Assembly (NCBI GenBank): GCA_049511095.1
Contig: JBEKYJ010000002.1
Location: 1-48,953 of the forward strand
Reading direction: 5' to 3'
From: Verrucomicrobiia bacterium
GTDB lineage: Bacteria > Verrucomicrobiota > Verrucomicrobiia > Palsa-1439
Length of the DNA: 48,953 nt
In this document: positions 35,419-43,695 of the stretch, piece after piece
Layout: the number at the start of each line of letters is the position of its first letter
How positions within the stretch are numbered: position 1 is the first letter of the stretch
The notes under the pieces: generated by a model
Seen by the model: the letters and a program-made list of their open reading frames with translations, nothing else
Told to the model about the DNA's origin: nothing
The model's database searches: none
Program-made: the position numbers and the translations under genes

Positions 35419-36282
35419 ATGAAAACGCTGGTTCTCATAATGGCCGCGTTGTGTTTGGCGAACGCGGCCCGCGCCAGTTCCACCATCAACGCGGCCAACC
35501 GGTACGCCTACGGCGCGAACGTGGGCTGGATTGATTGGCGCGGCGATGACGGCATCAACGGCGCGGTCATCGGCGAGTTTGTTTGCTCGGGCTACCTCTA
35601 CGGGGCCAACATCGGCTGGATCCACCTCGGCAGTGGCAGCCCGACAAACGGATTCGCCTACAGCAACCTCGCCACCAATGACTACGGCGTCAACCACGAC
35701 GGCGCCGGCAATCTCAGCGGCTACGCGTACGCCGCCAACATCGGCTGGCTGAACTTTGAAGCCCAAGGCGCGCCCAAGATTAACCTGCTGACCGGCAAGT
35801 TCAGCGGCTACGTCTATGGCGCCAACATCGGCTGGATTAGCTTGAGCAACGCGTTCGCGTTCGTGCAAACCGACGCGTTTGACGCCGGCCCGGACACCGA
35901 CGGTGACGGAATACCGGATGCTTGGGAGTATCTGCATGCCGGCGACTTGACGACCATGAACGCCATCACCGACAACGATGGCGACGGCGCGAAGGACGCG
36001 AACGAGTACGTCGCCGACACCGATCCCTTCGACGCCAGCGACTTCCTGCGGATCACCGCGCTCAAGGTCAACTCGGGCGGGTCGACGTCCAAGGTTACCT
36101 GGACGAGCCATCCCACGCGGTTGTATCAGGTGGAAAGCCGGGTTGACCTGACTGCCGGCTCTTGGGCGACGAACGCGCCGCCGGGGTTGGTCTCGCCCGA
36201 TGGGGGCGCAACGACCACCCGGGATGTGCCGGATACAACCGAAACGAAGCGGTTCTTCCGCGTCCAAGCACTTGTTCCGTAG
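35419..36282 (+). CDS. Secreted protein with Y(A/V/L)YGANIGWI repeats and DxDxDG Ca-binding tail
   Basis: Four (G/A)AN(I/V)GW repeats; DTDGDGIPD and DNDGDG motifs; ends RFFRVQALVP. Confidence 0.85.
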   Translation: MKTLVLIMAALCLANAARASSTINAANRYAYGANVGWIDWRGDDGINGAVIGEFVCSGYLYGANIGWIHLGSGSPTNGFAYSNLATNDYGVNHDGAGNLSGYAYAANIGWLNFEAQGAPKINLLTGKFSGYVYGANIGWISLSNAFAFVQTDAFDAGPDTDGDGIPDAWEYLHAGDLTTMNAITDNDGDGAKDANEYVADTDPFDASDFLRITALKVNSGGSTSKVTWTSHPTRLYQVESRVDLTAGSWATNAPPGLVSPDGGATTTRDVPDTTETKRFFRVQALVP

Positions 36283-37090: not shown

Positions 37091-39925
37091 CTACGGCGCC
37101 AAACGCACTCGGTAGTAACCGGCCGGGAAATTGGTCACCGCGCCCATGTCGAGATAGTTCCTGAGGCCGCCAACCGCGTCGGTGACAACGAAGATGTCGA
37201 CGAAGTTATTGGAATAACTGCCGCCATTGCCCCCCACAAAGCGCTGTAGGGCGTTGGTTTTGGCTGCAGCCGCCTGCCACGTGACGCGGATGTCGTTGCC
37301 TTCTCTCGTGATCGTCTTGATGTCGGCAACCGGGTTGCTGCCTGCCAGGAATTCCTGCAAATTGCTCATACCATCTCCGTCGGGGTCCTCACTGGCGACG
37401 TTCGGATCAAGTGGATCGAGGCCGTACTGCTGTTTCCATCCATTCGGGATTCCATCGCCGACCGCGCTCAGATTCGGGTCGAGAACGACGCTGCCGACAA
37501 TTAACGTGCCGCCATTGCGAATAAACAGGCCGCAGGCGTTCGTCATCACCAGCCTGTCCACTTGCAGCACACCACCGTTGAGAATCAATTGTCCGTTCCG
37601 CACCTCCAGCACGGCGTCGTGCGTCGCGTTGGTGACGATCACGCTGCCGCTGTTCAATTGAACCAGATTGTCGCAACCGGGTGAGTTATCCCCCAAGGAG
37701 GCTGACGGTTGGCGGGAAACGGATTGAGCCACTTCGACGGAACTGGCCTGCTGAACACCAATGACAACATCTGTGGCGAGAACAGATCCGCCGTCGACGA
37801 CGAGCGAGTTGGCTGATCCCATTTCGCCGATGTGCAGGACATTGTTCCACCATACGGCGCCAGCGCCCACCCACACGCTGTTCTCGCTGCTGCCGGAGTC
37901 GTAGCCCACGTAACCGAAATCGTCGGCTACCTGGCCTCCATCGTCGATCGCCAGGCTGTCGCCCACGCCATACCAGCCGACATAAAGGTCCGCACTGTTG
38001 TTCCACGTTGAGCCCGGCCCCGTCACCACCACGCTATTGTTGTCGGCCCCCCAACCGCCCACGTAAGCATTTCTGTTGACCCCCTGGGCGCCGTTGCTGA
38101 TCACCAAACTGTTCGCCGTGCCATTCCACCCGACGTACACAGCGCCGCTATTGCTCCAGACCGAGCCGGTGTCCGTGACCAGCAGGCTATTGCTGGTGCT
38201 GCCGTCCCACGCGCCGACCCAGATGCCACTGCTGATCAATTCACCGGCGTTATTGATCACCACGCTGTTGCTCCCGCCGCCGTAGCCGATGAACACCATG
38301 CCACCGCTACTGGTCCACACGGAGCCGGGACCGGTGACGAGGACGCGGTTGCCACTGGACTCGCCACCCAGATAATCATAGTAGTCGCCGCCGGGGAAAC
38401 TAAACATTTGGCCGCCATTGCTGATCACCACGCTGTTGCCCCCGCCGTCCCAACCCACAGTCAGGCCCCCGCGATTGCTCCAAACCGAACTCGTGTCGGT
38501 GACCAACACACAGTTGTTGCTGCTGCTGGAACCGCCGCCCATCCTGCCGATGACATCGATCAACTCGCCGCCGTTGCTGATCACCAAACTGTTGCCCGCG
38601 CCAGAACTGCCGATGTCCAGCCAGTAGCCGGCATCCCACACCGAGCCGGGATCGGTAATCAGCACGCTGTTGCCGCTGCTGTTGCCGTCGTCGCCCACAG
38701 TAGCGCCGCCGCTGGCCACCTGCCCGCCCTCGCTGATCACCAAGCCGTTGCCCGCGCCAAGGGAGCCGACGTACAGATTGTTGTTATTGCTCCAGACGGA
38801 ACCGCTTCCCGTGACCAACACGCTGTTGCCGCTGCTGCTGGGGGAGCCGCCGATGAAGCCGGAACTGTCCACCACTTCGCCACCGTTACGGATCACCATC
38901 GTGTTGCCGGCACCAGCATCTTCGTCGTAGCTCCATTCCGAGCCGCCGATAAACAAGTCCCGGTCGCTGCTCCAGAGGGAGTTCGTATCGGCAACCACCA
39001 CGTTGTTGTTGCTGCTGCCGGGGTAGTAACCGACGCTAGCGAAGGTATTGAATACCTGTCCTCCATCGCTGATCACCAGGCTGTTACCCGCGCCAGAACT
39101 GCCGACGTAGATTTCGCCGACGGCGTCGCCGATGGTTGTATAACTCACGACCGACCCCGGGCCGGTGACCAGCACGCTGTTGTTGCTGCTGCTGTCAGAC
39201 CAGCCCCCAATAACGAAGTAAGCCGAACTCATCTTCCCGCCGTTACTGATCACAAGGCTGTTGCCCGCGCCAGAACTGCCGACGTACATGGCGAAGGTGT
39301 TGCTCCATGCCGAACCTGAACCGGTGACCAGTGCGCTGTTGTTGCCGCTGTTGGAGTCCACGCCCAATTCAGAGGAATAGCCGGACACAAAGGCACCATC
39401 GCTGACCACGAGGCTGTTGCGCGAGCCGTCCCAGCCGACAGACACGTCGGAGACGTTCATCCAGACCGAGCCGGGGCCGGTGACCAGCACGCTGTTGTTG
39501 CTGCTGCCGGAGGAATAGCCCAGGTAACCGTCGCCGCTGACAATTTTGCCGCCATCGCCGATCACCAAGCTGTTGCCCGCCCCTAGATTGCCAACGACCA
39601 AATCATTACCGTCGACCGGGATCGAGAGATCGGTGAAATTCTTCCAGACCGAGCCGGGACCGATGACCAAAACGTCGTTGTTACTGCTGCTAACCTCGTA
39701 GCCCACATAGCCGTACCCGTTGGATAGCACGCCGCCGTCAAAAATCAGGAGTACGTCGGCGAACGTGTTGGAGCCGACAAGGTAGTCGCCCGACCAGTTG
39801 CTGGCCACGCCGCTGATGATGTTGGCTTGATAGTCGGCGGTGTACTGCGCCTGGATTGGTTGGGGTCCGAGAACGATTATGGCAAAAATTCCCCCGATTA
39901 GAGAACCGTGCAGCTTGTGATGCAT
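37091..39925 (-). CDS. Large secreted beta-helical repeat protein (T5SS/PEP-CTERM-associated-repeat-like) with DxDxDG tail
   Basis: Signal peptide; more than ten ~43-50 aa repeats (VG..GAGNSLVISNGG...SSNNSVLVTGPGSVW); DPDGDGMSNLQEFLAGSNP; ends YYRVRLAP. Confidence 0.88.
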   Translation of the reverse strand: MHHKLHGSLIGGIFAIIVLGPQPIQAQYTADYQANIISGVASNWSGDYLVGSNTFADVLLIFDGGVLSNGYGYVGYEVSSSNNDVLVIGPGSVWKNFTDLSIPVDGNDLVVGNLGAGNSLVIGDGGKIVSGDGYLGYSSGSSNNSVLVTGPGSVWMNVSDVSVGWDGSRNSLVVSDGAFVSGYSSELGVDSNSGNNSALVTGSGSAWSNTFAMYVGSSGAGNSLVISNGGKMSSAYFVIGGWSDSSSNNSVLVTGPGSVVSYTTIGDAVGEIYVGSSGAGNSLVISDGGQVFNTFASVGYYPGSSNNNVVVADTNSLWSSDRDLFIGGSEWSYDEDAGAGNTMVIRNGGEVVDSSGFIGGSPSSSGNSVLVTGSGSVWSNNNNLYVGSLGAGNGLVISEGGQVASGGATVGDDGNSSGNSVLITDPGSVWDAGYWLDIGSSGAGNSLVISNGGELIDVIGRMGGGSSSSNNCVLVTDTSSVWSNRGGLTVGWDGGGNSVVISNGGQMFSFPGGDYYDYLGGESSGNRVLVTGPGSVWTSSGGMVFIGYGGGSNSVVINNAGELISSGIWVGAWDGSTSNSLLVTDTGSVWSNSGAVYVGWNGTANSLVISNGAQGVNRNAYVGGWGADNNSVVVTGPGSTWNNSADLYVGWYGVGDSLAIDDGGQVADDFGYVGYDSGSSENSVWVGAGAVWWNNVLHIGEMGSANSLVVDGGSVLATDVVIGVQQASSVEVAQSVSRQPSASLGDNSPGCDNLVQLNSGSVIVTNATHDAVLEVRNGQLILNGGVLQVDRLVMTNACGLFIRNGGTLIVGSVVLDPNLSAVGDGIPNGWKQQYGLDPLDPNVASEDPDGDGMSNLQEFLAGSNPVADIKTITREGNDIRVTWQAAAAKTNALQRFVGGNGGSYSNNFVDIFVVTDAVGGLRNYLDMGAVTNFPAGYYRVRLAP

Positions 39926-40150: not shown

Positions 40151-40954
40151 TTATGACGGCGGGAGGGTCTGGAGAAGCTTTTGCGCTTCGGCCTTCCACT
40201 GGCCGCTCTCGAATTGCTGGTCTGGCCACGGCTCTGCCTCCAGGACTTTGCGAAGAGCCGTCTTTGCCTCTTCCGCCCGGCCATTGTCGCGAAGCGCCTC
40301 GGCCAGATACAGATAATTTTCCGGGTAATCGGGAAACAGTTCCACCGCGCGCTGCAGTAACTTCAGCCCTTTGCGCGGGCTGCCGATGCTCGCCGGCGGC
40401 AACGGCGTCCGCAGATGCAGGATTCCCAGCACCCGCAACGGTCCTCCCAGATCATAGCGCTCGTCCAACTCGATGGCCCGCTTCAGCGCCGCCTCCATCT
40501 CGCCGACGGCATCCAGCCCATACGAACGATCCACGTCGGCCAACAGTCCGACATTGAGCGCGTACCAGTAATGACCCTCCGCACCGTCAGGCTTCAACTC
40601 GCGCGCGCGCCGCGCGAAGATAATCCCGCGTCGGGCCGATTCGCGGCGGGATTCCGGGCGCGTCTCATTCTCGGCCAGAAACGCCAGCGCTTGCGCCGCC
40701 TGCCACTGCGCCCCGTAATCGTCGCGCAACGTGTGCGCCGCTTGTTCGAGTTGGCGCGCCGCGTCGGTTATGGTTCCCAGCGTTCGCGGCTGCTGATTGT
40801 ACAGCGCCAATCCTTCCACACGCAGCTCTTGCGCTTCCGCCGCCGTCAACTCCTGCGATTGCCTCGGATCGACCCGCACGTTTCGGATCGATCGGCAACC
40901 GCACGCTACCACGACCAACGCGCCCAGCAACACCACCGCACCCCTACTTCCCAT
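40151..40954 (-). CDS. TPR lipoprotein, TatT/BstC-like
   Basis: Lipobox ACGC; GHYWYALNVG, GGPLRVLGILHLRTP...IG, AVELFPDYPENYLYLAEAL. Confidence 0.75.
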   Translation of the reverse strand: MGSRGAVVLLGALVVVACGCRSIRNVRVDPRQSQELTAAEAQELRVEGLALYNQQPRTLGTITDAARQLEQAAHTLRDDYGAQWQAAQALAFLAENETRPESRRESARRGIIFARRARELKPDGAEGHYWYALNVGLLADVDRSYGLDAVGEMEAALKRAIELDERYDLGGPLRVLGILHLRTPLPPASIGSPRKGLKLLQRAVELFPDYPENYLYLAEALRDNGRAEEAKTALRKVLEAEPWPDQQFESGQWKAEAQKLLQTLPPS

Positions 40955-41786
40955 GGAAAAGTTTCTCCGCGTTCGTCAGCCTAGTTTGTTCGATGTCCGT
41001 GAACGACTCGACTCGGATGCTCCGCAAAATCTTTTGCCCGTCTTCGCTGCCGCTCATGTCCCTCAAAACCTGCTTCACCTTGTCGACACTCCACGCGCCA
41101 TTCTTCGGACCAAACAGCACCACCAGATCGCGCGGCAATTCGTCCGATTGATAAACCACCTTGAGCTTCCCACCCGAATCCGGGTCGTCCTTGAACATAT
41201 CCCACGCGCCCGCTTCCAGCAGCACCGCGTCCGCCGCGTTCTTGCCGCCCTCGGCCAGATCGAACACCGCGCCTTCCACGTCCAGGGTCGGCTTGAGCCG
41301 AATCTCTTCGCCGAGTTTTCCTTGGAGAACCACGCCGATGACGTATCGCTGTTCGGTCGCCAGCGGAGTCGCAACGGTCCTGCCTTCGAGCTTCGCCACG
41401 TCGTCACTCGCGTCCTTCCGCGTGACGAGCACGTAACGCTCCGCCTTCACGCCCGTGCGTTTCGTTTCCAACAACGGCTCCATACCGAGCGCTTTCGCGT
41501 ACGTCAGGTAGAATCCCGCCGTGACAATGCCCAGCGCGGGCTTGTTCTTGCCGCTGAACTCCGCCGCCTTCACGGGATCGTTCATCACATACGGCTCGAA
41601 TGCATTGGTCGTCCCCGCAACTTTCTCGCCGACATACGCCGTCAGCCCCACAACCGTCGGCCCCGCCGCTTCCTGTGTGGCAAATTTCTCGCCCGTCTTC
41701 AGAAACAGGAATGGCCGCGGACCGTCAGCCCGGCCTGCCGATGCAACGCACAACACCACTGCGAATAACTGCGCCGTTGTTCTCAT
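40944..41786 (-). CDS. PhnD/SsuA-like periplasmic binding protein, BstB-like
   Basis: Signal peptide; YVLVTRKD...LEGRTVA; ADAVLL; YQSDELP; GQKILRSIRVESF; ATGA overlap with the upstream synthase stop. Confidence 0.7.
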   Translation of the reverse strand: MRTTAQLFAVVLCVASAGRADGPRPFLFLKTGEKFATQEAAGPTVVGLTAYVGEKVAGTTNAFEPYVMNDPVKAAEFSGKNKPALGIVTAGFYLTYAKALGMEPLLETKRTGVKAERYVLVTRKDASDDVAKLEGRTVATPLATEQRYVIGVVLQGKLGEEIRLKPTLDVEGAVFDLAEGGKNAADAVLLEAGAWDMFKDDPDSGGKLKVVYQSDELPRDLVVLFGPKNGAWSVDKVKQVLRDMSGSEDGQKILRSIRVESFTDIEQTRLTNAEKLFHGK

Positions 41787-42640
41787 CCTCGACATCCCAA
41801 CCAGTTCTTGCCAACAATCCACAGTTTCTCGACGGTGGAAAGCCGAATCCGCCTATCGAACACGGCGAAGTTGCTCTCCTCGATCTTGCGTAGGATGCCT
41901 CCATAGATGGTAATCATCACCGCCAGCGTGCCGCGACTATCAGCGTCGATCATCTTGAGCAGTGGACGCGCCTTGTCATAAAAGTCACGGGCTCGTGCCG
42001 CCTCGAACTTCATCAACTCCAGAAACTGTGGCGTGGCGCGCGAGTCCATAATGTCATCTTCTGAGACGCCGAACCGACGCAAATCTTCAAGCGGCAGATA
42101 AATCCGCCCCATCTGCGCGTCCTCCTTCACGTCGCGGAGGATATTGGTAAGCTGAAACGCGATCCCGCAGGCTTCGGCGGGCACCAGCGCGGCCTCGTCT
42201 TTGTAGCCAAAAACCGGCAACACGACCAACCCGACCGCCGACGCGACGCGATAACAATACCTGTACAGCTCGTCAAACGTCGCATACCGCGTGGTCGTCT
42301 GGTCCATCTCCGTGCCGTCGAGCAGTTCGTGGAAATGGCGGAGAGGAATCCGATAGCGGCGCACGGTATCCGCGAGCGCCGGCAGGATCGGATCGTCCAC
42401 AGCGCCACCGTTCAACGCGGCGGCCACCTGTGCGCGCCACAGACGGAGACCTTCCAGCGCGACCGCCGGATTGACCGCACTGTCCGCGATGTCGTCACTG
42501 CGCCGCATGAACGCGTAGATGGCGCACATGGCGGCCCGTTTCTCGCGCGGCATGACCAGGAACGAATAATAGAAATTCTTTCCCGTCCTTCGCGCAATCC
42601 GTTCGCATACCGCGTACGACTCCTCCAGACTCACGCTCAT
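41783..42640 (-). CDS. Squalene/phytoene synthase family (HpnD/CrtB-like)
   Basis: NFYYSF, YAFMRRSDDIAD, YCYRVASAVG, GIAFQLTNILRDVKED, GRIYLP. Confidence 0.93.
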   Translation of the reverse strand: MSVSLEESYAVCERIARRTGKNFYYSFLVMPREKRAAMCAIYAFMRRSDDIADSAVNPAVALEGLRLWRAQVAAALNGGAVDDPILPALADTVRRYRIPLRHFHELLDGTEMDQTTTRYATFDELYRYCYRVASAVGLVVLPVFGYKDEAALVPAEACGIAFQLTNILRDVKEDAQMGRIYLPLEDLRRFGVSEDDIMDSRATPQFLELMKFEAARARDFYDKARPLLKMIDADSRGTLAVMITIYGGILRKIEESNFAVFDRRIRLSTVEKLWIVGKNWLGCRG

Positions 42641-42648
42641 CGCCGCAG

Positions 42649-42677
42649 ATTATGGCAACCGACCGAATCGGACGCAA
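42649..42677 (-). promoter_or_regulatory. Near-leaderless sigma70 promoter of the synthase operon
   Basis: TTGCGT-17-CATAAT-8 nt-ATG. Confidence 0.6.
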
Positions 42678-42721
42678 GATTGCTCTCGCCTCGAAAACAT
42701 TCGGGACAGGATGTCGCCCGT

Positions 42722-43675
42722 CTAAAAATGATAGCTCATGACCACCTTGAGAAGCCACGGCGCCACCACCTGATTGCCACGGAAGTCTTGGAACACGGGC
42801 ACTTCAACGTCTGCGTACACGCTCACCGGATGCATATCAACCTCGACTCCCGGAGAAAGCAGAATCCGCTGGTAGCCACTATTGGGCGTGTCCGCGTTGG
42901 CTCCGCCGTCACTGGTCCGTTCGGAACCGATTACCTGCGCCACCGGCGAGATCGTCATCCTGCCGAGGGACCAACCTTTGTAGTAGATTCCGGCGGCCGC
43001 ATCGACTTCGATGCCCGGGCGGTATTCCTCTCGCGTGGCTACCGGCAAGTCCAACTCTGCCTGGGTAAACCAGGTGAAGCCATCGATACTTCGCAGTTCT
43101 TGGCGATGGAAGCCGCCGAGAAGAATGTCCGTGCTCCCCGTCCCGAGTTCGGTGTCCCGATCGATGTCACCAAACGCATCATTGTGAGTATAGCTGCCAG
43201 TCGGCAGCTTGAAACCGAAGGTCACACCGCTGGAGAGATCCTCTGAAAACCCGGTGTAGACGCCCTTGACTCGAATGTCGCCGAGACTGGCCCAGTTTTG
43301 CGCGACGATGTTATTGCCGGAGGCGCCGCCGGTCGTCTTGAAGTATCGCTCGTCATAAGGCACTTCGACCTGAATTCCCCAACTGCGGTCGAACATGTAC
43401 TGAACCCCGAGCGTGACGAAGTGCGTCCGGATCTCCTTGTCATCATTATTCGCATCGGGTGCTGATGATGTTCCGTGCCAATTGTGGCTCTGATCCTGAT
43501 AGTCGTATTCAAGAAACACCATGCCGCCTTGGCTCTCGGGAAACATCGAGCTTGTGCCTACGTCGAAAACCCCGCATCCACAGGCGCAAGCCCAGCCCAC
43601 ACTGGGCGCCAGAACTACAGCCAACAACGATGCCAGGCCAAAGTTAGCCGGGAGATGTAATCGACAGAATCTCAT
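42722..43675 (-). CDS. Outer-membrane beta-barrel-like protein with N-terminal CACGC motif
   Basis: Signal peptide, amphipathic strands, LGDIR, KLPTG, LGTGSTD, C-terminal SYHF; alternative GTG start at 43681. Confidence 0.7.
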   Translation of the reverse strand: MRFCRLHLPANFGLASLLAVVLAPSVGWACACGCGVFDVGTSSMFPESQGGMVFLEYDYQDQSHNWHGTSSAPDANNDDKEIRTHFVTLGVQYMFDRSWGIQVEVPYDERYFKTTGGASGNNIVAQNWASLGDIRVKGVYTGFSEDLSSGVTFGFKLPTGSYTHNDAFGDIDRDTELGTGSTDILLGGFHRQELRSIDGFTWFTQAELDLPVATREEYRPGIEVDAAAGIYYKGWSLGRMTISPVAQVIGSERTSDGGANADTPNSGYQRILLSPGVEVDMHPVSVYADVEVPVFQDFRGNQVVAPWLLKVVMSYHF

Positions 43676-43695
43676 AGCCACGAGTTGCGAACCGG

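Follow-up and report, generated by a model that had tools for sequence, protein, structure and literature searches.

We analysed a window of 48,953 nucleotides, which is contig C2 of a Verrucomicrobiota metagenome-assembled genome (MAG; 3.9 Mb in 292 contigs, 94.7% complete), and focused our attention on three overlapping genes encoding an hpnD-like prenyl synthase, a periplasmic binding protein resembling BstB and a lipoprotein resembling BstC. The BstB-like and BstC-like proteins are probably the hopanoid counterpart of the sterol relay BstABC, and would provide the periplasmic and outer-membrane arms of hopanoid trafficking. In such a route, an HpnN-like RND pump, encoded beside shc, hpnH and hpnG on other contigs of the same assembly (C186/C267), would draw hopanoids out of the inner membrane; the lipid would then enter an apolar cavity of the soluble BstB-like protein and travel with it across the periplasm, to be received at the outer membrane by the BstC-like protein, a lipid-anchored ring of TPR repeats, with the hpnD-like synthase being co-expressed with both carriers through translational coupling. 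The proposed relay is built on homology, protein folds, export signals, gene linkage, co-occurrence with the triterpenoid cyclase SHC and the existence of pump-carrier fusions. What is new is that Bst-type carriers are tied to hopanoid rather than to sterol synthesis, together with an HpnN-like pump, a link that we did not find in print.

The gene unit lies on the minus strand and opens with the hpnD-like gene (42640..41783), whose 285-aa product is a head-to-head prenyl synthase of the SQS_PSY family. Its TGA shares an ATGA with the ATG of the BstB-like gene (41786..40944, minus strand), which encodes a substrate-binding protein of 280 aa with an N-terminal signal peptide in the first ~22 residues, and the end of this second gene is overlapped by 11 nt by the start of the BstC-like gene (40954..40151, minus strand), coding for a TatT-type TPR lipoprotein of 267 aa with a lipobox cysteine, Cys20. 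This layout had been given correctly, coordinates included, in the sequence-only reading of the same DNA, which also claimed one promoter for the unit. That claim was not confirmed: in the 81 nt immediately 5' of hpnD (42641..42721, minus strand), the presumed promoter region, scanning for sigma-70 sites gave none. A weak terminator-like hairpin (42719..42704) follows the gene upstream of hpnD, and hairpins of this kind, after that gene and after the lipoprotein gene, occur at chance level, with seven seen and 5.7 expected from shuffled sequences.

Conservation of the unit was surveyed by scanning a genome collection with a close-family profile of the BstB-like protein (A2, 17 rows), which returned 45 loci, 43 from Verrucomicrobiota and two from Planctomycetota. 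Since the BstB-like gene is immediately preceded by hpnD in 42 of the 43 Verrucomicrobiota loci, the last one being cut by a contig end, the arrangement of the triad exceeds chance. Downstream, a BstC-like gene is found in 39 of these loci, and the other four are contig-cut. A class-III aminotransferase gene comes after the triad in ten of the 43, its product being 78-86% identical to that of the aminotransferase gene which adjoins hpnN in the genome of the window itself; the next gene is hpnN in four of those ten, and further along hpnG and hpnH appear in L040, L041 and L051, with shc in L040 only. Linkage to isoprenoid and hopanoid genes, for which a synteny survey had been proposed, is therefore kept across Verrucomicrobiota and, as described below, Planctomycetota. 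Regarding distribution, A2 found matches in 43 of the 44 genomes (15 genera) that belong to the window's own family, in neither of the two genomes of the order's other families, and in none of the 300 other Verrucomicrobiota sampled, where a close-family profile could miss distant homologues. SHC scored over its cut-off in 42 of the 44 own-family genomes, in both genomes of the order's other families and in 14 of the 300 remaining ones. Within the own family, 41 of the 43 genomes with a BstB-like gene have SHC, the exceptions being G304 (96% complete) and G336 (59%).

The BstB-like protein has PF12974 as its sole Pfam match (55.3 bits, cut-off 27) and BstB (NF045601; 59.8 bits, E 2.3e-16) as its sole NCBIfam match, and its best sequence match in the PDB is 7t1m (E 9.7e-8), identified as the BstB structure in PMC11713862. 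A family profile of 54 BstB-like members (A1) matched 7t1m over its full length at E 3.4e-59, compared with 8.5e-12 for ArrX and only ~6e-4 for PhnD. The AlphaFold model (predicted local distance difference test, pLDDT, 93.2, with the N-terminal 20 residues at low confidence) likewise had 7t1m as top Foldseek match (E 3.1e-18; template modelling, TM, scores 0.77/0.83). Cavity residues were taken from the tables of Zhai et al. (PMC10942540), that for BstB in part: of the residues aligned to the BstB cavity, 22 of 29 are apolar in the window's protein, as are 77% of the aligned cells in A2 and 80% in A1, and Tyr120 of BstB aligns to Tyr118. These values come from a sequence alignment, and the hydrophobicity of the cavity, which had earlier been proposed for inspection, is judged here by the aligned positions.

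It could be argued that the BstB-like protein is nothing other than an orphan binding protein of the usual kind, for phosphonates or oxyanions, and that it and an unrelated TPR protein ended up beside hpnD by accident, as PF12974 is the only Pfam match and relatives are publicly annotated as 'PhnD/SsuA/transferrin family' or 'phosphonate ABC transporter substrate-binding protein'. We regard this as very improbable: the A1 profile favours BstB over PhnD by a wide range of E-values, the positions aligned with the BstB cavity are mainly apolar, and the pairing with a BstC-like gene is kept across two phyla. Moreover, a Pfam survey of the whole 48.9-kb window, covering 26 further open reading frames, found no ABC, TRAP or RND genes, and no PhnE exceeded its cut-off in the assembly, where the best score was 45.1 bits against 216.7, on another contig. 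The sequence-only description of a PhnD-like periplasmic protein lacking an ABC permease or ATPase is in agreement with these results.

An exhaustive search of 1.84 billion representatives yielded 217 clusters at E <=0.001 and 64 at E <=1e-10, from which the BstB-like proteins appear as a small and distinct family, separate from the bulk of PhnD proteins. When 20 representatives were scanned against NCBIfam, 16 matched BstB only (32.5-131.6 bits), one had no match, and three turned out to be pump fusions; the BstB and BstC models gave matches in none of 14 control genomes. The Bst family is hereby widened from the ~13-16 published sequences to 217 clusters that now reach hopanoid producers, and annotations such as 'PhnD/SsuA/transferrin family' and 'TRAP transporter TatT component' are misleading for these genes. 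As a separate observation, the closest relative, at 91% identity, has its BstB-like gene divided between two overlapping frames (L062:10001-10841; G345:C7:55655-56492), and the hpnD next to it in G345 has an in-frame TGA; the split could reflect a frameshift or an assembly error.

The third protein of the unit matched BstC (NF045602) with 102.8 bits (E 2e-29), TatT (PF16811) with 30.1 bits against a threshold of 26.5, and TPR families as well. Its best PDB sequence match is the BstC structure 7t1s (E 3.7e-21), and the lipobox Cys20 is unvaried in all 31 aligned homologues. Foldseek, run with a model of pLDDT 92.4, ranked 7t1s first (E 1.2e-9, TM 0.66/0.75), with the TPAT protein 8g52, a fatty-acid binder, in second place and 3u64 also among the matches. 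The motifs that the sequence-only reading had named, YALNxG and GGPLRVLG, are present in the lipoprotein as YALNVG and GGPLRVLG, the latter aligning with GGPLRLLG of BstC. Glu86 of BstC (chain residue 72) is a residue that binds the head group and whose mutagenesis weakens sterol binding (PMC10942540); in our alignment it corresponds to Glu95, a column that reads E in 25, D in three and other residues in three of the 31 homologues. Overall, BstB and BstC are the top matches by sequence and by fold among solved structures, which bears out the likeness put forward in the sequence-only reading. With 59.8 and 102.8 bits against equivalog cut-offs of 350, the two proteins are best classed as homologues, not equivalogs, of BstB and BstC.

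Source names attached to close homologues put the window's genome in Verrucomicrobiia, one of these homologues being labelled Bryobacteraceae. The own genome encodes a single triterpenoid cyclase homologue, an SHC with 748 bits against a cut-off of 431; no second cyclase homologue was found, and a sterol pathway is absent. After shc come the genes for HpnH, with 385 bits, and for an HpnG-like phosphorylase that, with 106 bits, falls short of its cut-off, and facing these genes is that of the HpnN-like RND pump, whose open reading frame leaves contig C186 (5710-7911) and resumes on C267 (1-564) with an 8-residue translated overlap. Because the two contigs join inside this gene, the hopanoid cluster reads shc-hpnH-hpnG / hpnN-aminotransferase, with the class-III aminotransferase gene adjoining the HpnN-like one. 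The pump scored 518 bits with HpnN (TIGR03480) on its contig-cut piece of 733 aa and 62 on the N-terminal piece (cut-off 751.85), 352.8 with NF052374 (1100) and 268.8 with BstA (1400), all below cut-off. It is unlinked to the triad, lying on other contigs, in line with the expectation that an RND partner would be encoded elsewhere. A genome search for shc/osc, hpnC/E, crtI and hpnN/bstA had also been called for; it found SHC and the HpnN-like pump, no HpnC or HpnE over cut-off, and no full-length oxidase of the HpnE/CrtI type. One can speculate that the linkage to an aminotransferase and the acidic residue at the position of BstC Glu86 would suit an extended hopanoid with a polar head. On a minor note, HpnH (C186:3575-4930) has 451 aa and matches its 318-position profile in two stretches, so that, compared with the family model, it seems to carry an insertion and to be extended at the C-terminus.

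Further support for a hopanoid connection was obtained in Planctomycetota. Two loci of this phylum read shc-(hpnH)-hpnN-like-BstB-like-BstC-like, and their cyclases are of the SHC type (521 and 724 bits), with OSC scores of only 225 and 262 against 851; HpnD is located elsewhere in these two genomes, apart from the pair. Among 20 further Planctomycetota loci, a BstC-like gene is adjacent in 18, an HpnN-like gene lies directly upstream in 15 and SHC is found within the stretch in five. The locus L085 combines shc, HMG-CoA reductase/mevalonate kinase, diphosphomevalonate decarboxylase, phosphomevalonate kinase, a fused pump-BstB-like gene and a BstC-like gene, in this order. Genome-wide, A1 matched in 40 of the 251 Planctomycetota sampled, 34 of them strongly, and SHC was present in 89 of the 251, that is, in 33 of the 34 genomes with a strong match as compared to 56 of the other 217.

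Three distinct proteins (P0259, P0282 and P0375) consist of an HpnN-like MMPL pump with a C-terminal BstB-like domain, and Pfam confirmed MMPL plus PF12974 for two of them. The fusion was also seen as an open reading frame of 1278 aa in L085 (6627-10463), apparently the same protein as P0375 with a different start. Every fusion contains an extra hydrophobic, signal-like segment between the pump and the BstB-like domain, which would fit a BstB-like domain returned to the periplasm, the C-terminus of the pump being, as we assume, cytoplasmic. In a maximum-likelihood tree of 63 BstB-like domains, which has only a midpoint root and several long branches, a branch with support 100/99 sets apart the 41 rows from Verrucomicrobiota, and the 22 from Planctomycetota spread over several deep groups; L062 (gene in two pieces), L065 (partial) and the window's own protein were left out of it.

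The first gene of the unit passes the curated cut-off of HpnD (TIGR03465; 304.1 bits against 278.6), stays under that of HpnC (222.2 against 250.45) and matches PF00494 with 284.8 bits, so the identification as an HpnD/CrtB-like synthase was correct. The Asp-rich motif of the protein, SDDIAD, belongs to the DDxxD type; in the motif rule that separates HpnD from Sqs, DTxxD marks Sqs (Santana-Molina et al., 2020; PMC7306690). Each of the 47 genomes examined from the order contains a single strong match of the HpnD type, and HpnC and HpnE exceeded their cut-offs in none. The own genome holds a second, divergent SQS_PSY protein (C53:4885-5877; PF00494, 151.7 bits) with a DTxxD motif, and an Sqs-type DTxxD synthase was found in 43 of the 46 other genomes. 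Given that an Sqs-type synthase accompanies it in almost all genomes, the lone HpnD may be unnecessary for squalene. Genomes with HpnD plus Sqs, Verrucomicrobia included, have already been noted, and the lone HpnD was taken as a sign of 'functional versatility' (PMC7306690). As far as our searches show, its operon coupling to lipid carriers appears unreported, and a lone hpnD in an operon offers a handle on the unexplained pattern of HpnD without HpnC/E.

These data also bear on what is carried. The sequence-only reading had left the choice among hopanoids, squalene and carotenoid-type lipids, and of these we favour hopanoids over carotenoids because no full-length HpnE/CrtI-type oxidase is present in the genome and HpnE remained under its cut-off in all 47 genomes; carotenoids are rejected as cargo on the same grounds, and squalene or another product of HpnD is possible. 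In this regard, the cargo might be the product of the co-translated lone HpnD, which could be material derived from presqualene diphosphate, squalene itself or a different acyclic C30 triterpenoid destined for the envelope. The ATGA overlap of hpnD with the BstB-like gene, the near-universal adjacency of the two in the Verrucomicrobiota loci, and the coexistence of Sqs-type synthases with an HpnD that has neither HpnC nor HpnE beside it, seen in print as versatile, all speak in its favour. Nevertheless, we consider it unlikely, as the Planctomycetota pair accompanies hpnN and shc without hpnD, and the fusions involve the HpnN-like pump. Moreover, in the order's other families hpnD directly adjoins shc (G301), which fits a role of HpnD in the hopanoid pathway itself.

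Binding proteins classically feed importers, and the pair could accordingly serve the uptake, retrograde transport or sensing of external hydrophobic compounds such as sterols, fatty acids or plant triterpenoids. The TatT family does include fatty-acid binders associated with importers (PMC11713862), one fatty-acid binder, 8g52, being the second-best fold match of the BstC-like model, and the habitat, going by the organism names attached to the DNA runs, is a peat or wetland soil in which plant lipids abound. We hold this to be slightly less probable still than a cargo made by HpnD. No TRAP transporter or matching ABC importer was found in the assembly (94.7% complete), which contains no match to DctM, as expected from the earlier description of a TPR lipoprotein without a TRAP transporter; the conserved linkage and the fusion are to an HpnN-type RND/MMPL pump and to biosynthetic genes; and the pair is nearly confined to genomes bearing SHC.

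Hopanoid trafficking by the BstB-like/BstC-like pair, in its turn, faces several points that weigh against it. As Es_TatT illustrates, proteins with the TatT fold can have fatty acids as ligands (PMC11713862), so the fold by itself leaves the cargo undecided, and both proteins are far below the equivalog cut-offs. The neighbour in the window is hpnD, which acts before cyclisation, with the pump not adjacent, and the cargo could be an earlier intermediate. SHC occurs without a BstB-like gene in the 14 other Verrucomicrobiota and in both genomes of the order's other families, and SHC was not seen in G304 and G336, nor in one planctomycete with a strong match (G388); in other words, the pair implies SHC (41 of 43 own-family genomes), and SHC does not imply the pair. 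Finally, related genomes are not independent, so that co-occurrence statistics overstate the case and no weight is put on the Fisher value, and the evidence is wholly computational, coming from MAGs and other assemblies. Which hopanoid is carried, in which direction, and how it would be handed over physically among the three proteins are matters on which we can only infer.

The closest known system is BstA-BstB-BstC, the sterol transporter proposed for Methylococcus capsulatus, with structures 7T1M and 7T1S (Zhai et al., 2024, eLife; PMC10942540). The pair shares with it the same two folds (no solved protein is more closely related than BstB and BstC), matching signals for a lipoprotein and for the periplasm, a three-part logic with an MMPL/RND pump, the order pump-binding protein-lipoprotein in the Planctomycetota relatives, and a place beside a triterpenoid cyclase gene. 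The differences are these: the pair shares 21-30% identity with the solved proteins; the genome has SHC instead of OSC as its cyclase and lacks a sterol pathway, whereas Bst genes are linked to osc and sdmA/B and their products bind 4-methylsterols; the pump is nearer to HpnN than to BstA (518 versus 269 bits); and in the window the pump is unlinked, with hpnD taking its operon place. The published BstB and BstC clusters comprise 16 and 13 sequences, mostly from Methylococcaceae and always with sterol genes, and the discussion by Zhai et al., in the part drawn on here, leaves hopanoid producers unmentioned (PMC10942540).

HpnN, the hopanoid RND transporter, is described as acting alone at the inner membrane (Doughty 2011; Kumar 2017, as cited in PMC10942540 and PMC11713862). 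Here, the genome likewise has an HpnN-like pump gene in the company of shc, hpnH and hpnG, and 15 of the 20 further Planctomycetota loci have one immediately before the pair; in contrast to HpnN, the pump comes with dedicated periplasmic and lipoprotein partners, one of them fused in the three proteins described above, and it scores below the HpnN cut-offs. For Pseudomonadota, the Mla-like and lipocalin-like carriers HpnM, HpnS and HpnT were proposed from shc/hpnN neighbourhoods (Lawrence et al., 2025 preprint; PMC12324291). The proposed job is the same, a periplasmic shuttle and an outer-membrane receptor working with HpnN, and both proposals rest on microsynteny, but the folds (MlaC, MlaA, lipocalin) are unrelated, and HpnM, MlaA/HpnS and DUF2147/HpnT were not found in the own genome. 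In the portion of Lawrence et al. used here there is no mention of phosphonate-binding or PhnD-, TatT-, TPR- or Bst-like neighbours, and domains in <5% of neighbours were dropped there (PMC12324291). Compared with the T-components of TatT/TPAT systems (Tp0956, Es_TatT), the BstC-like protein is a similar all-helical TPR ring lipoprotein that exceeds the PF16811 threshold; the genome, however, has no TRAP transporter, and the partners are a PhnD-fold protein and an RND pump instead of DctP/QM. With PhnD, PtxB, AioX and ArrX, the BstB-like protein shares the bilobed PF12974 fold, but it has no ABC partner here, its sequence relation to PhnD is weak and its cavity-aligned positions are mainly apolar. 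Our literature search found nothing linking BstB-, BstC-, PhnD- or TatT-like proteins to hopanoids, with the reservation that Table S3 of Lawrence et al., on shc neighbours, might still list such domains; a 'TatT' match in PMC12414744 was the name of an author, not a protein, and was discarded.

For the passage of hopanoids across the periplasm, HpnN is the sole component established so far, and the candidates of the 2025 preprint are Mla-like and restricted to Proteobacteria. The locus and its relatives provide small soluble candidates with solved homologues, for which lipid-binding assays and structures are feasible. In a wider perspective, we would put at about even the chances that certain PVC (Planctomycetes-Verrucomicrobia-Chlamydiae) bacteria, that is, one Verrucomicrobiota family and around a seventh of the sampled Planctomycetota, send hopanoids to the outer membrane by a three-part HpnN-like/BstB-like/BstC-like machine of shared ancestry with BstABC. 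The Bst relay would then be a general means of triterpenoid export with the sterol form as one offshoot, and a second solution unrelated to the Mla-like HpnM/HpnS; the recruitment of an orphan HpnD in Verrucomicrobiota would hint that this enzyme feeds or tunes the pathway.

Concerning expression, metatranscriptome contigs from four runs cover portions of the hpnD-like, BstB-like and BstC-like genes; they are 92-97% alike to the window and therefore come from relatives. Two of them span the hpnD/BstB-like junction (X21, 41738-41852; X22, 41726-41876). This is a weak hint that the triad is expressed, as assembled contigs do not prove that the genes share one transcript and may stem from carried-over DNA.

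Regarding the surroundings of the triad, the gene upstream of hpnD (42722-43681, minus strand) encodes a predicted outer-membrane beta-barrel protein of 319 aa and follows a gene for a CDF metal exporter at a distance of 14 nt. The protein has a Cys-rich CACGCG stretch right behind its signal peptide, and its sole match is Phenol_MetA_deg, at 21.5 bits against a threshold of 22, with no sequence match in the PDB; it may be metal-related. Neither gene was retained as a member of the unit, the first being absent or inverted in relatives and the second belonging to CDF-argF-argD, which looks like plain conserved gene order. Further away from the triad, a gene at 35419-36282 (plus strand) encodes a 287-aa protein with a faint TSP3_bac match and no stretch over threshold. 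On the downstream side, the gene at 37091-39925 (minus strand) encodes a 944-aa protein with 11 T5SS/PEP-CTERM-associated repeats and a C-terminal part with Amuc_1099-like and TSP3 features, and similar repeat genes also come after the triad in loci L036 and L039.

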